Assembly: GCA_036340075.1 (NCBI GenBank)
Contig: JAYYZJ010000009.1
Location: 1-12,128, forward strand
Length of the DNA stretch: 12,128 bases
Direction: 5' to 3'
Source of the DNA: Thermodesulfobacteriota bacterium
GTDB lineage: Bacteria; Desulfobacterota_D; UBA1144
Shown: positions 1 to 6,309 of the stretch, piece by piece
Numbering within the stretch: the first letter of the stretch is position 1
How the letters are laid out: each line of letters begins with the position of its first letter
Position numbers and translations under genes: made by a program
Notes under the pieces: generated by a model
What the model was told of the DNA's origin: nothing
Database searches by the model: none
What the model saw: only the letters and a program-made list of their open reading frames with translations

Positions 1-1247
1 TCTCTTGCTCCATCGAGATATCTTGTATAGTCAGCTTTTAAAACAATGTTGTATATTGGTTTTACAGAAATACCAGTTGTATGATATTTTGTTCTGTAAT
101 CAATGTTTCTTTCAGCAGATGCTTCAACTTCATCATGAAAATTCAAATATTCATATCTGTAGAATGGAGCAACATACCAAGAAGTTCCAATATATGGACC
201 TAAATCATGAGCTACTTCACCATAATAACCAACTTGTTTCTTACCAAATTTAAGGTGTTTAGCTGATGTCAAAGTATTGTTCAACCTTTGTACGTGACTA
301 AAGTTATTTTCTGCATAAAGGAAAACATATTCAATGTCCATAACCTCACCTTTAGTGAATACACTAAGCATTTGAACTGAAGTGTGTGGATCATTAACTT
401 CAAAACCAGTTACACCTGAACTTGGGTTAACTTTACCTTCATACCATGATCCACCAATCATCATGTTTGGTGTCAATTGATATTCAAGTCTACCTATAGT
501 AGCCATTTCATTTGAAACTGTTTGACTTCCTTTACCTCTAAAATCTCTCATTCCACCACCTTGCTTAGTGACTCCTGGATATTTTAAAGAGGTTACATAA
601 TACAATTTATAGTCTAACTTCTCACCAAGTTGTCCGAAAATACCGACTCCGTTTTCTCTTGATGTTGTAGGTATAATTTTGTTTTCTGTCCATGGTCTAT
701 AAACTCCATGGAAAAGAGTTGGTTCATGCTTCTCATTTATTATTCCTAAAGGGAGTAATAAAAGACCGGCTCTTGCACCTAACTTACCATTTGTTGCTTT
801 TGGTGCGTAATCGATATAAGCAAACTCAAGATATGATTCGTCTGCGTGCTCAAATTCAACTTCAGTGTTTAATGTCCACTCGTCATCGAACTTGTAACCA
901 ACATAAAGAATACCTCTGTATGCATCAGATTGATCATATTTGTCTCCTTCAATATATGCTTTGTTTACTATTTCACCATATCCACCGATTGCTAAACCTT
1001 TGGATGTGTTGTAAACCTTTGAAGCTGCAGCACCAAATCCTCTTTGAGAACCTAATTCACCACCAAATAATTCTTGGTTTTTTAGTCTCTCGATTTCTTC
1101 TGCTAAAATATCAATTTTTTCACTAGTGGAAGCTCCAGAAAGCTTATCACTTGTTGATACATCAGCAGTGTCTTTAGAGAGGGATGGCATGCTAGACATT
1201 GAAAGAACCACAAATAGAAAAATTAAAAAACTTACCGTTCTATTCAT
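1..1247 (-). CDS. Outer-membrane beta-barrel protein / putative porin (OprO/OprP-like fold suspected), runs off the left edge
   Basis: Manual translation from ATG 1247 (GGAGG at 1254-1258) is open to position 1 (~415 aa): MNRTVSFLIFLFVVLSMSSMPSLS (signal peptide), coiled-coil-like KIDILAEEIERLK, then IGGYGE, ILYVGYKFDD, EVEFEH, YLEFAYIDY, RAGLLLLPLGIINEKHEPTLF, RPWTENKIIPTT, FYRYEYLN, PIYNIVLKADY. Aromatic-rich alternating beta-strand pattern; motifs recognised from a widespread porin-like family. Not in the ORF track because there is no stop in the window. Confidence 0.85.
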   Translation of the reverse strand, partial: MNRTVSFLIFLFVVLSMSSMPSLSKDTADVSTSDKLSGASTSEKIDILAEEIERLKNQELFGGELGSQRGFGAAASKVYNTSKGLAIGGYGEIVNKAYIEGDKYDQSDAYRGILYVGYKFDDEWTLNTEVEFEHADESYLEFAYIDYAPKATNGKLGARAGLLLLPLGIINEKHEPTLFHGVYRPWTENKIIPTTSRENGVGIFGQLGEKLDYKLYYVTSLKYPGVTKQGGGMRDFRGKGSQTVSNEMATIGRLEYQLTPNMMIGGSWYEGKVNPSSGVTGFEVNDPHTSVQMLSVFTKGEVMDIEYVFLYAENNFSHVQRLNNTLTSAKHLKFGKKQVGYYGEVAHDLGPYIGTSWYVAPFYRYEYLNFHDEVEASAERNIDYRTKYHTTGISVKPIYNIVLKADYTRYLDGAR

Positions 1248-1306
1248 ATCTTACCTCCTAAGATAATCTAGATATCATGGACCCCCTAGGTCTATGATAT
1301 CCGGAT
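1247..1306 (-). promoter_or_regulatory. Structured 5' leader of the porin gene (two adjacent hairpins, SD in the loop of the second)
   Basis: Inverted repeat 1266-1283/1289-1306 (18-nt arms, 15 Watson-Crick pairs) immediately followed by perfect 7-bp stem UAUCUUA-GGAGG-UAAGAUA (1247-1265). Confidence 0.6.
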
Positions 1307-1310
1307 ATAT

Positions 1311-1338
1311 ATATTATTTGTTTTTTACATTTAGTCAA
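1311..1338 (-). promoter_or_regulatory. Putative sigma70 promoter of the porin gene
   Basis: Minus-strand TTGACT (1338-1333), 16-bp spacer, TAATAT (1316-1311); predicted start near 1304, at the base of the leader hairpin. Confidence 0.5.
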
Positions 1339-1357
1339 GTAAAAAAGGGAGGTTTAT

Positions 1358-2374
1358 TCACTTTAAGTTATTAAAAATCTCAATAGATTTACCATCAGAG
1401 TTATATTCGATAATCAAAAATTGAGCGTTTTTTAATGTGGATATCTTACTTAGAGCTATTTCTAGAGGCATAGATATCAAAGCAGTTGAGATAGCATCGG
1501 CAAAGATAGGATCATCAGAAACTACACTTATTGATAAATTTTTATTGTTTTTAGAGTCATTTGATAAGGGGCTTATAATATGAGATTTAATTTTATTTTT
1601 TAGAATAAAGCTTTTACTGTAAGTGTTAGATGTTGAAATTGATAAATTATTAATTGGAACACTAATAGACTTGGTATCGTTCTTTTTGTTGGAATTTCTT
1701 ATAGTGCTTTTCCAATCATGATTTGTAGAAATTGTTGTTATATTTCCTCCAAAGTTTATCATGGCATCTTGGATTCCATCTTCTATCAAGCTTTCTATCA
1801 TAAGATTTATTACATATCCTTCAGCTATTCCACCAAAATCAATCTGTATACATTGATTTTCTTTTGAAATTGTTCCTTTGTCTGATTTATAAATTATTTT
1901 TTCTAGACCGGTACATTCCTTAATAATCTTTTCATATTCTTTTCTTGTCATATTTATTTGAGCTGTTGTTTCGTAATTAACCATACTTGTTATTCTGCCT
2001 AGAGTTATATCAAAATATTTGTCAGAGATTTTATTGTATTTGTTAGATAGCTCATAAAGAGTTCTAAAGTCGTTTGAAATCTTCATTTCTTTTTTTGAAT
2101 CCAATTGATTGAATTGCGATACTTCTGACTCTTTATCGTAATTATTAAATATTTTACTTTTTTCAACAGCTATATCTTGTGCTTCATTAATAATTTTATT
2201 AATCGTTTTAGAGTCAGCTTCAGAAATAACTATAAAGTCTAAATTAGTCCCCCAGGCTATGAAACTACGTCTAACCTCTTTAGTAGAAAAAAAAGAATTA
2301 AAAATGATTACTATTATTGTTAAGGCTAAAATGCAAAATATAAATCTATTACTGCTGCTAAGCTTTTCTATCAT
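1358..2374 (-). CDS. apbE: FAD:protein FMN transferase (ApbE/Ftp family), membrane anchored
   Basis: Motifs AWGT, SEVSQFN, FDITLG, IDFGGIAEGY, NFGGNI, ISTS, SHIISP, ADAISTAL; N-terminal hydrophobic helix. Start moved from the track's TTG 2413 (overlaps the start of the divergent gene) to ATG 2374; ATG 2389 is an alternative. Confidence 0.9.
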   Translation of the reverse strand: MIEKLSSSNRFIFCILALTIIVIIFNSFFSTKEVRRSFIAWGTNLDFIVISEADSKTINKIINEAQDIAVEKSKIFNNYDKESEVSQFNQLDSKKEMKISNDFRTLYELSNKYNKISDKYFDITLGRITSMVNYETTAQINMTRKEYEKIIKECTGLEKIIYKSDKGTISKENQCIQIDFGGIAEGYVINLMIESLIEDGIQDAMINFGGNITTISTNHDWKSTIRNSNKKNDTKSISVPINNLSISTSNTYSKSFILKNKIKSHIISPLSNDSKNNKNLSISVVSDDPIFADAISTALISMPLEIALSKISTLKNAQFLIIEYNSDGKSIEIFNNLK

Positions 2375-2412
2375 ACTAAAATTATACATATGATGTATAT
2401 TAATTCTTTGCA

Positions 2413-4152
2413 ATGAATTCTTTACTTTCTTTACTGCCAGAACATAAAAAAAGCATATTATTTGGTGTGCTTGGCCTTACTTTCGTTGACGGAATAATGT
2501 TGCTAGTTCCCATAATTATTGGTGATATAGTGACAAAATTATCTGAAGCTAACTCATCTGAATATTTATTATCTTCAATAAATAAAGCTTCTCTTTATCT
2601 ACTAATTTGTGGTTTAGTGATGGCTTTTTTTAGATTTGTATGGAGATATTTTTTGATGGGCACTGCCAGAAGAATAGAAAAGAAAATTAGAGAAAAGTAT
2701 TTTCAACAATTACAAGATTTACCTATGTCATTTTTTAGTCATAAGAATGGAGGTGATTTAATGACAAGAGGGGTAAATGATATAGAAAACATTAAAATGG
2801 CTTGCGGCTTTGGAATAGTTCTGGTGTACGATGGAATCGTACTCCTTGCATTTATATTTATTTCTATGTTTGTAATATCTCCAGACTTTACCATGTACGC
2901 TGCAATACCTTTTATTTTAATGGGTTTTTTGATTTTAAGATATGGTGACTATATACAACAACTCTTTTTAAACGTACAAAATACTTTTTCAAAATTAACG
3001 GAGGAAGTAAGAAAGATTATCTTTTCTATTCGTGCTATTAAGTCATTAAACGATGAACAAAATCAAATTGCTAAATTTACAAATGTAAGTAAATCATATG
3101 AAATGGAAAATCTAAATTTAATTAAAATATGGGGAGGGTATCAACCAGTTATAACTTTTTTAACAGGAATTTCTATATTAGTTTTAATTTTTCTTGGAAG
3201 CAATATGGTTTATGAAGATAAGATATCTTTAGGAGAATTTTCTTCTTTAATGGTCTATTTGACTATGTTAAGTTGGCCTGTAATCGCAATGGGAATGGCA
3301 GTTGATTTCTTAAAGAGAGGCAATGCTTCTTTATCAAGGGTTAATGAAATAATTTTTAATGAACCAGAGAAAGACGAAGATTTGCTTAAAAAAATTAATT
3401 CTATAAAAAAAATAGAATTCCGAAATGTTAATTTTTCCTATAAAAATGATGATTTTATTAAAAATCTATCTTTAGAAATCAGAAATTCACAGACTATCGG
3501 GATAACAGGTAAAACAGGATCGGGTAAATCTACTTTATGTAAGCTAATCATGAAATCTATTAAAGCTGAAAATATTTATCTTAATGATGATGAAATTAAC
3601 AATCTAAATAAAGAATCGATTAGATCTCAAATTGCCTATGTTGACCAGGAGCCGATTATTTTTTCTGGAACAATAAGAGAAAATGTAAGCTTTTTTGATA
3701 AACAACCAAAAGATTCTTCCATAATAGAATCTCTAGAGACAGCAGGCTTCCAGAAAGACTTATCTAAAATGCCCAAAGGTTTGGAGACTATTGTTGGAGA
3801 GAGAGGTTTGAGTCTTTCAGGTGGACAGAGACAAAGATTGTCTTTAGCTAGAGCATTATATCAAAATCCTAGTGTTTTAATATTAGATGATAATTTGTCA
3901 TCACTAGATGTTGAAACCGAATTAAAAATTTTAAACAATATCAAGAGAAAGTTTAAAGATAAAATACTTATTCTTGTGTCATCACGAATCTCAACAATTT
4001 TTACTTTTGATAAAATTGTTGTTCTTGATTCAGGGAAAATAGTACAGTTTGGGAACTCAAGTCTACTGGAAAACGAAGTAGGTTTATTTAGAGATTTGAT
4101 GTTAACTCAGAAAAATCTACCTGTTGAGGAAGAAACCAATGTCTCAGAATAA
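2413..4152 (+). CDS. ABC exporter half-transporter (TMD+NBD), MdlA/YheI-like subunit with degenerate catalytic residues
   Basis: N-terminal TM helices, GDLMTRGVND, Walker A GKTGSGKST, Q-loop YVDQE, signature LSGGQRQR, Walker B LILDD (no catalytic Glu), switch region VSSRIS (no His). Confidence 0.93.
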   Translation: MNSLLSLLPEHKKSILFGVLGLTFVDGIMLLVPIIIGDIVTKLSEANSSEYLLSSINKASLYLLICGLVMAFFRFVWRYFLMGTARRIEKKIREKYFQQLQDLPMSFFSHKNGGDLMTRGVNDIENIKMACGFGIVLVYDGIVLLAFIFISMFVISPDFTMYAAIPFILMGFLILRYGDYIQQLFLNVQNTFSKLTEEVRKIIFSIRAIKSLNDEQNQIAKFTNVSKSYEMENLNLIKIWGGYQPVITFLTGISILVLIFLGSNMVYEDKISLGEFSSLMVYLTMLSWPVIAMGMAVDFLKRGNASLSRVNEIIFNEPEKDEDLLKKINSIKKIEFRNVNFSYKNDDFIKNLSLEIRNSQTIGITGKTGSGKSTLCKLIMKSIKAENIYLNDDEINNLNKESIRSQIAYVDQEPIIFSGTIRENVSFFDKQPKDSSIIESLETAGFQKDLSKMPKGLETIVGERGLSLSGGQRQRLSLARALYQNPSVLILDDNLSSLDVETELKILNNIKRKFKDKILILVSSRISTIFTFDKIVVLDSGKIVQFGNSSLLENEVGLFRDLMLTQKNLPVEEETNVSE

Positions 4153-5809: not shown

Positions 5810-5882
5810 CGGGGTGTAGCGCAGCTGGTAGCGCACCTGTTTTGGGAACAGGGGGTCGGAGGTTCGAGCCCTCTCACCCCGA
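5810..5882 (+). tRNA. tRNA-Pro(TGG)
   Basis: Acceptor CGGGGTG/CACCCCG, anticodon arm CCTGT-TTTGGGA-ACAGG, T-arm GGAGG-TTCGAGC-CCTCT, discriminator A; no encoded CCA. Confidence 0.97.
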
Positions 5883-5917
5883 TTAAATAAATCAAATCAA
5901 TAGAATTAATTTTTCTT

Positions 5918-6121
5918 TTAATTTAAATCTAATTGAATATTAGCAAACAAACTATTTCGAGCTTTTCTTTCAATGCTTTTTCGATAAGCTTTTAAAGCAT
6001 AAGAATGTCTAAAAAAAGAAAGTTTCTCTTTAACAGACAATGCTACTTTTTTTGTTTGCCTTTGTACTTGGGTATTGTTAACGGTAACCACCAAGTTTGT
6101 TCTTAGTTCAGTCTTGAGCAT
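5918..6121 (-). CDS. Small basic hypothetical protein (67 aa); weak by-eye resemblance to ribosomal protein bS21
   Basis: Strong SD AAAGGAGGT (GGAGG at 6131-6135) 9 nt before ATG 6121; the track's TTG 6127 is too close to the SD. Candidate promoter at 6259-6267. K/R-rich with no TM segment. Confidence 0.7.
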   Translation of the reverse strand: MLKTELRTNLVVTVNNTQVQRQTKKVALSVKEKLSFFRHSYALKAYRKSIERKARNSLFANIQLDLN

Positions 6122-6155
6122 ATCCAAATACCTCCTTTAAAAAAGATATTCGAAC
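6122..6155 (-). promoter_or_regulatory. SD-sequestering hairpin (fourU-like) in front of the 67-aa ORF
   Basis: GAAUAUCUUUU-UUAA-AGGAGGUAUUU forms 11 contiguous pairs (4 G-U), extendable to 15 with GUUC/GGAU right up to the AUG. Confidence 0.55.
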
Positions 6156-6249
6156 TTGTAACGCATGTTCAATGCGAGTCTTTTAACCCATGACCTATGG
6201 AGGCTTTTCACTCATGTCCTATGAGGGTCTTTTTGGCCATGACCTATGG
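6152..6249 (-). ncRNA. Array of four tandem 24-25 nt repeats, each a predicted minimal H-type pseudoknot (cis-regulatory leader or processed small RNA)
   Basis: Units 6249-6226, 6225-6201, 6200-6177, 6176-6152; stem 1 CCAU/AUGG, CUCAU/AUGAG, CCAU/AUGG, CGCAU/AUGCG; loop-to-downstream stem 2 GGUC/GACC, GGAC/GCCU, GGUC/GACU, GAAC/GUUC; A-rich connecting loops. The repeat is certain, the fold is predicted. Confidence 0.7.
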
Positions 6250-6258
6250 AATACTTTA

Positions 6259-6267
6259 ATTATATCA
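6259..6267 (-). promoter_or_regulatory. Extended -10 promoter (TGnTATAAT) for the repeat array and small ORF
   Basis: Minus strand reads TGATATAAT at 6267-6259; predicted +1 near 6252-6253, 3-4 nt before the first repeat. No recognisable -35. Confidence 0.65.
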
Positions 6268-6280
6268 AATATATATTGAA

Positions 6281-6309
6281 TTTCATTAATAAATAATGGA
6301 AGATAAAAT
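6281..6309 (+). promoter_or_regulatory. Putative promoter of tRNA-Arg/tRNA-His
   Basis: TTTCAT (6281-6286), 17 bp, TAAAAT (6304-6309), 10 nt before tRNA-Arg; the region is very AT-rich so the match is not highly specific. Confidence 0.4.

Follow-up and report, generated by a model that had tools for sequence, protein, structure and literature searches.

Tandem minimal pseudoknots in nitrogen-related leaders of marine bacteria and phages as a candidate small-molecule switch

The window analyzed here, a 12,128-nucleotide stretch of DNA from a Thermodesulfobacteriota bacterium, raises the question of what four minimal RNA pseudoknots, lined up in front of a small open reading frame (ORF), might do in a marine host with a ∼1-Mb (963-kb) genome of 31% GC. 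The initial annotation had read 98 nt of the minus strand as four abutting minimal H-type pseudoknots, and rereading of the sequence reproduced these letters exactly. Alignment of 12 arrays yielded a consensus unit of 25 nt, composed of a 5-bp stem 1, a 1-nt loop 1, a 4-bp stem 2, and a 6-nt A-rich loop 3. In the window, unit 1 (6226..6250, minus strand, as are all units) has a 4-bp stem 1 and a stem 2 of GGUC/GACC, two pairs of which were doubly changed among the 12 arrays. Unit 3 (6177..6201) has a 5-bp stem 1 with a terminal U-G pair and a stem 2 of GGUC/GACU, and unit 4 (6152..6176) pairs GAAC with GUUC, the latter strand being shared with a hairpin at the ribosome-binding site (RBS). Unit 2 (6202..6225) comprises 24 nt. 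It had been described as carrying an A-C mismatch and a G-U pair, but the alignment fits better with a one-base deletion that leaves a bulged A in stem 2 (GG-A-C with GCC); the gap is common to 4 of the 12 arrays, and in the other 8 all four stem-2 positions are paired (GGGC/GCCC, GAGC/GCUC, GUAC/GUAC, GAAC/GUUC). The last U of unit 2 forms part of stem 1 of unit 3.

A pseudoknot descriptor relying on pairing geometry and not on sequence found chains of one, two, three, and four units 7,930, 167, 7, and 1 times, respectively, in the 963-kb genome. The sole chain of four was the window array, to which two of the seven chains of three also belonged. Among dinucleotide-matched resamples of the window, 0/300 contained a chain of four and 7/300 a chain of three. 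The proposed row of four pseudoknots was thus borne out. A search of Rfam returned nothing over 6152-6250 at E values up to 5, and only three tRNAs and sub-threshold noise for the window, in agreement with the earlier failure to recognize a described family.

Stem 2 covaried strongly. Within the 12 arrays, 98.6% of 427 cells were paired, and 17 double-sided changes were counted versus 5.2 in shuffles (0/500), with slid partners as a control pairing at 27 to 40%. When all lineages were pooled, 89 distinct units were obtained, of which 86, 89, and 82 paired at the three free positions of stem 2. The 29 distinct stem-2 types formed 81 of 87 pairs, compared to 37.0 ± 4.4 in 20,000 shuffles and 26 to 37% with slid partners; kinship among units inflates the contrast to shuffles, but the types derive from several groups of phages as well as from two bacterial groups unrelated to each other. 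Similarly, 82 distinct units from all lineages (from 85 25-mers minus three bulged unit-2 variants and one duplicate, with the window row one base out of register) were 97.2% paired versus 69.4% when shuffled, with 205 versus 61 double changes. The invariant CAU, CAUG, and AAG were partly imposed by the search pattern, which contained these letters; a few natural variants outside it (L043, L220) still pair. Loop 1 was variable (A 59, U 13, G 5, C 4 of 81 units). Since G-U pairs outnumbered A-C combinations 20 to 7 in the units, the minus strand is favored as the functional one. The earlier proposal of a selected RNA structure is supported, with covariation across lineages far above shuffles.

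In the window's family, the four-unit cassette was present in 14 of 19 genomes, at differing places. A tie to the spacer between tRNA-Pro and tRNA-Arg did not persist in relatives, and a link to argJ or to tRNAs was rejected because the genomic context differs among them. Two units preceded gltB in 7/19 family genomes, alongside or in place of the four-unit cassette; one genome (G004) had a gltB array, and no peptide array was found in it. The gltB, glnA, and amt leaders of the window genome itself contained no units, and 101 other genomes of the class gave no true hit. Matches to a two-unit pattern numbered 77 among 185,579 species genomes, 25 among viral contigs, and at least 120 among metagenomes. 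The range of the motif is a lower bound because single units without an adjoining aptamer would mostly have been missed. Overall, SAR86 and marine phages shared the unit with the window's marine family, in one to four copies.

Classed by downstream sequence alone, the 77 genome loci comprised 29 with gltB, 19 with a glutamine aptamer, 12 with a peptide, and 17 others, of which 1 was an overlooked peptide locus and 16 were chance or simple repeats. Viral loci were mostly followed by peptides (23 of 25, with 2 others), and the metagenome matches listed (at least 120) included 27 gltB, 18 glutamine-aptamer, 36 peptide, and 39 other contexts. Genes after the units encoded a TorF-type porin, PII, an ammonium transporter, and GltB, as well as glutamine synthetase (GS) I and GlnII-like proteins. 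A covariance model matched in 47/151 SAR86-order genomes. Its 33 lower-ranked SAR86 hits included 18 single units with an aptamer ahead of glutamine synthetase (two of these calls were profile checked, the rest made by N-terminal likeness), 9 ahead of gltB, 4 with a unit, two glutamine aptamers, and a 45-amino-acid (aa) basic ORF, and 2 false hits. In 151 sampled gammaproteobacterial genomes, the sole hit besides two SAR86 was locus L754, where two units without a glutamine aptamer precede a DUF4278-like gene (E 1e-4, below cut-off), for which no viral relatives were found. DUF4278 itself was hit once in 401 sampled gammaproteobacterial genomes, with no unit upstream. The model search in 6 relatives of genome G359 found none, a loose viral scan yielded 0 true cases in 118 loci, and arrays and peptides had no counterpart in named phages, the viral capsid being only 30 to 34% like that of isolates. 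Model hits L404, L405, L495, and L506 were discarded because they lie within coding sequence.

Tandem repeats of 22 to 26 nt with a CAT-N5-ATG core were also observed in Magnetovibrio/Rhodospirillaceae (L090, L111, L114, L123), in several intergenic places and followed by a shared sequence of 40 to 60 nt. Their stem 2 pairs, but the copies are near identical and the contexts unrelated; they probably constitute a separate repeat element and were left uncounted.

The initial annotation overlooked that the array lies in a 5' leader, that it overlaps a hairpin burying the RBS, and that its family is tied to nitrogen assimilation. Upstream of the array, a promoter-like site with an extended −10 element (6259..6286, minus strand; TATAAT at 6264-6259) is predicted to start transcription at about 6252; it ranked first among 3 hits to the consensus (10/12, with the TG), and shuffles yield 3.4 such hits. 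Marine RNA-library contigs (4 runs, 3 studies) spanned 5870-6237, thus the array and the ORF, at 0 to 9 differences. Contigs of the window and related arrays ended at 6213-6249, those of related arrays at 6244-6249, and read depth was absent at 6266-6302 and over the flanking protein genes. This extent is consistent with a short separate transcript, the contigs carrying no strand and the runs having been picked for containing the stretch. A Shine-Dalgarno sequence, AAGGAGGU (6130..6137, minus strand), was predicted by folding to be buried in a hairpin at 6123..6155 of the same strand, a candidate expression platform whose base begins within unit 4 and draws on the 3' strand of stem 2 there. 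After the stop codon, an A/U-rich 12-bp hairpin (5891-5925, minus strand) faces the convergent tRNA-Pro, whereas terminator-like hairpins rich in GC were seen in relatives that carry the cassette elsewhere.

According to nearest-neighbor estimates in which the pseudoknot was treated as a constraint, formation of unit 4 in the window lowers the cost of opening the segment between the Shine-Dalgarno sequence and the start codon from 19.8 to 11.8 kcal/mol (20°C), with 11 bp of the RBS hairpin (11.8 kcal/mol) remaining. The native triplet ranked 3rd of 64 for the competition between unit 4 and the RBS hairpin, and the stem-2 strands of units 4, 1, and 3 gave 8.7, 6.6, and 4.0 kcal/mol, respectively, at this hairpin. 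In 37 leaders, which are related and hence amount to fewer than 37 independent tests, the competing fold took at least 2 stem-2 nt in 36, the pseudoknot eased RBS opening by more than 1 kcal/mol in 30, and the native triplet was within the top 8 of 64 in 20. The overlap with the RBS recurred with unrelated sequence in SAR86 gltB leaders and in most phage peptide leaders. The layout in the window is therefore a candidate translational ON switch, as the modeled geometry implies that expression would be on when the pseudoknot is stabilized. This geometry was not supported in the gltB leaders of the window's family (ranks 18 to 41 of 64), in T4-like phage leaders (ranks 16 to 42 of 64), or at L754 (8.0 versus 8.8 kcal/mol, rank 37 of 64). 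The units of glnA and amt leaders, in which glutamine should switch expression off, are located at a distance from the RBS.

The ORF behind the array (5918..6121, minus strand) encodes an Arg/Lys-rich basic protein of 67 aa (net charge +10), with counterparts of 46 to 73 aa in relatives. A modest excess of synonymous changes was found, chiefly in the C-terminal part. The conserved C-terminal ∼30 residues were homologous to 13 phage peptides of 29 to 36 aa in reciprocal profile tests (0 to 2 of 1,000 shuffles). Four close homologues of the window peptide were identified, and its profile gave 11 hits, one being a 1,300-aa repeat protein and the rest family members. Homology of a SAR86 peptide was unsupported (55 and 245 of 1,000 shuffles scored as high), as was that of T4-like phage peptides to the window family. 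The window peptide matched nothing in Pfam, NCBIfam, PHROGs, PDB sequences, or the ESM Atlas, including DUF4278; 23 aligned peptides gave no Pfam hit, and five further peptides gave no NCBIfam hit. Near the peptide cassette of one genus is a 439-aa gene with an N terminus that, by eye, resembles that of glutamate dehydrogenase (flanks of L031 and L032).

The window genome encodes GS I, PII, two Amt proteins, and a GlnD-like gene, and no full GlnE was found in it; GlnE hits in the family were only 37 to 54 aa long, within frames of 843 to 858 aa. Short basic inhibitors of glutamine synthetase, IF7 and IF17, are described from organisms without adenylylation of the enzyme (PMC6316151). The window cassette resembles the cyanobacterial gifA/gifB genes for these inhibitors in its short basic protein, in the suggested nitrogen control at the RNA level, and in an organism without GS adenylylation, but its peptide has neither a DUF4278 nor an IF hit, and it occurs in a noncyanobacterial host and in phages. 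By this analogy, it is plausible that the window peptide acts on glutamine synthetase, at odds that we put well below even.

One of the closest known counterparts of the motif is the glutamine-I riboswitch (glnA motif, RF01739). Both are associated with GS, GOGAT, PII, ammonium transporter, and DUF4278 genes and other short basic ORFs, both occur in marine bacteria and phages and in tandem copies, for both RBS release has been proposed, and they are often directly adjacent. RF01739, however, is a three-way junction of 53 positions without sequence match to the motif. Its model matched neither the window (E values up to 5) nor the window genome, and elsewhere its matches began 3' of the units, directly so in 5/20 and 8/15 loci scanned. 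The gene set of the motif equals that reported for glnA RNAs (PMC2864571), and the context characteristic of glutamine-I, nitrogen genes or short basic/DUF4278 ORFs, was found throughout the motif family, although the window ORF is not DUF4278. DUF4278 genes are described as the usual targets of glutamine riboswitches, which turn on DUF4278/IF17 genes, probably via RBS release (PMC6212724). Among the 120 viral glutamine-I matches listed, 2 carried a unit directly 5' of the aptamer, both before DUF4278-type ORFs, with the domain scoring over the cut-off in L672 and below it in L712. Most of the at least 120 viral loci consist of a promoter, the aptamer, an RBS, and a basic ORF of 26 to 65 aa from many unrelated families; none of the ORFs of L634 to L753 gave a good score against the profile of the window peptide, with a maximum of 10.8 bits among the matches listed. 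Glutamine-I riboswitches of marine phages and SAR86 have been published before (PMC9004378, PMC12379486), and the word "pseudoknot" is absent from the former.

Glutamine-II (Downstream-peptide, RF01704) is likewise a pseudoknot-based sensor before short peptides in marine microbes, but has three coaxial helices, a G>G-C triple pocket, picocyanobacterial hosts, and about twice the length; its model had no match in the window or in the other motif loci scanned. The STAXI motif (RF01728), a pseudoknot described in two or three tandem copies (PMC2864571), differs in its occurrence in Enterobacteriales, its position near DNA-handling genes, its UUCG loops, and its 153-position model, which had no match in the window genome at E 10. 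The motif lacks an Rfam match, is shorter (25 nt) than the small H-type riboswitches, and is set apart from them by one to four abutting copies and nitrogen genes. PreQ1-I, guanidine-III, SAM-II/V, and tandem guanidine-II riboswitches have a compact H-type fold with an A-rich loop 3 or repeated mini-aptamers, their 3' end lying near the RBS; binding sites in such H-type pseudoknots are noted in PMC6698751. A search of the openly accessible literature found no published account of the motif. The main text of a large-scale clustering of intergenic motifs (bioRxiv 10.64898/2026.10.21.760802) mentions neither glutamine, gltB, SAR86, nor nitrogen; its catalogue and supplements may contain the motif.

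Comparison of sequences showed the fold, strand, position, and gene associations of the motif, and on this basis it is an uncatalogued cis-regulatory RNA of nitrogen assimilation, real and strongly covarying. As is generally expected of a riboswitch, it is a conserved, covarying structure in a 5' leader. We consider it probable, from its sequence and contexts, that it represents an orphan riboswitch class, a small-molecule switch for nitrogen status; of the functions first suggested, that of a ligand binder is hence the one we favor. Glutamine would be the likeliest ligand, with a chance that approaches even, as it fits best with a gene set equal to that of glnA RNAs and with DUF4278 genes being preceded by units with or without an aptamer. 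Taken as a whole, a translational switch that senses glutamine is our best explanation, and we would place it just short of an even bet. The array would then be the sensor of a cis-acting switch in the 5' leader of the small basic protein. The 25-nt pseudoknot would be marginally stable, and a small ligand would stabilize it at the conserved junction of stems 1 and 2. Once formed, the last unit would remove 3 to 4 nt from the base of the RBS-hiding hairpin, so that translation rises, and the upstream copies would sharpen the response or stack on the last unit. Glutamine, signaling plentiful nitrogen, would turn on glutamate synthase, its consumer, and also the short basic peptide, which may damp glutamine synthetase in a family without GlnE, as IF7 and IF17 do. 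That only 2 of the 120 viral glutamine aptamers listed have a unit speaks against this reading. Moreover, in the glutamine-I/II pocket as described, a G>G-C triple lies over a C-G pair, together with a metal ion (PMC6698751); at the sequence level, the only counterpart in 81 units was one invariant C-G, with no conserved G for the triple.

The same switch might instead respond to 2-oxoglutarate, glutamate, or ammonium, which seems unlikely to us. 2-Oxoglutarate, a dianion, would be a hard ligand for 25 nt. With such a ligand, the pseudoknot and the glutamine-I aptamer of SAR86 would form an RNA gate reading both carbon skeleton and nitrogen, like GlnD/PII in protein, and gltB would be turned on with its other substrate. 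In keeping with this, the units adjoin and do not replace glutamine aptamers in glnA and amt leaders, stand alone on gltB, and have no evident glutamine-type pocket, and dual sensing of glutamine and 2-oxoglutarate is described as the rule in nitrogen control (PMC6316151). Units before DUF4278-like genes, however, are found whether or not a glutamine aptamer is present (L672, L712, L754), and this suggests one and the same signal; tandems for one ligand and for two are both known, and SAM-II/SAM-V exemplifies two classes sensing one ligand (PMC9481103). Rather improbable is a reading of the units as repeated sites for a protein, either a nitrogen-responsive RNA-binding regulator or the Arg/Lys-rich peptide itself, which would stabilize the pseudoknots and open or close the RBS. 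Their small, repetitive build, conserved in shape with stem 2 free in sequence, would suit it, but the motif spans two unrelated bacterial lineages and phages with no shared partner identified, and G004 has the gltB array without a peptide array having been found. Mini-ykkC turned out to sense a metabolite (guanidine-II), a precedent against protein sites. In favor of them, small repeated motifs like those of mini-ykkC had been read as such sites (PMC2864571).

The units might also act without sensing, as a 5'-end cap against decay or as a folding insulator for nitrogen mRNAs, and to this we assign a small chance. Units often start right after a promoter-like site, are remote from the RBS in glnA and amt leaders, and lack the ON geometry in some leaders. 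This reading nevertheless explains neither the strict association with nitrogen genes nor why units repeatedly overlap RBS hairpins whose sequences are unrelated; the distance from units to TAnnnT hexamers had no single peak in 102 upstream sequences, and in one phage group the capsid gene and then a terminator-like hairpin come before the array. A stand-alone stacked rod, another early suggestion, does not agree with the occurrence of single units and pairs. DNA operator repeats (CAT-N5-ATG every 25 bp) or an array of type III antitoxin are very improbable and largely refuted. The core is palindromic, and tandem H-type pseudoknots are typical of ToxI, but loop and downstream bases vary freely among homologues and yet stay complementary, and G-U prevails over A-C. 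Type III antitoxins (ToxI/CptI/TenpI) are laid out as a repeat array, a terminator, and an endoribonuclease toxin gene. Here, the array is followed on the minus strand by an RBS and a familyless 67-aa ORF, with no intervening terminator, toxin-sized gene, or Rfam match, and elsewhere by housekeeping nitrogen genes. CsrA-type sites were dismissed because GGA is present only in unit 2 of one clade.

If the preferred ligand, glutamine, is correct, the motif would be a third, structurally unrelated class of glutamine riboswitch, used as a module that can be stacked one to four times, and with 25 nt it would, to our knowledge, rank among the smallest natural aptamers. A binder of 2-oxoglutarate, glutamate, or ammonium, for which we know of no riboswitch, would introduce a new riboswitch ligand at the center of nitrogen sensing. 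A still wider picture, in which a 25-nt aptamer for one of these three forms an all-RNA carbon/nitrogen gate with glutamine-I aptamers and phages dose a peptide that retunes host glutamine synthetase, has odds that we put well on the low side. With either ligand, abundant uncultured, streamlined marine bacteria and their phages would control nitrogen assimilation by RNA, and the new host-and-phage peptide family would be a candidate regulator. Testing would be inexpensive, as the RNAs and the list of ligands are short and disrupt/restore mutations are at hand.

Several further features were seen around the units. In a set of viral contigs that includes L156, L158, and L159, the major head gene (phrog_1005) and a hairpin resembling a terminator immediately precede the array and the peptide. 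A second viral group (L205, L222, L285, L312, L316, L357, L364, L385) has two units after a TAAATA late-promoter-like motif, preceding different basic peptides of 33 to 40 aa. In SAR86 glutamine synthetase leaders (L483 to L502, L508, L424), an intact unit is followed by a decayed second unit that is a plain hairpin, by one glutamine-I aptamer or two, and by an additional conserved hairpin, and the two ends of the leader have stretches rich in UGCA that could pair; many of the genes behind them are GlnII-like and not GS I. Upstream of gltB in L080, L089, and L112 is a GCAC-N5-TGGTGCA site, which we take to resemble an NtrC box. In the SAR86 locus L087, the gltB and porin-amt genes diverge (3-1412, minus strand, and 1696-3045, plus strand), with the array and the glutamine aptamer in the space separating them.
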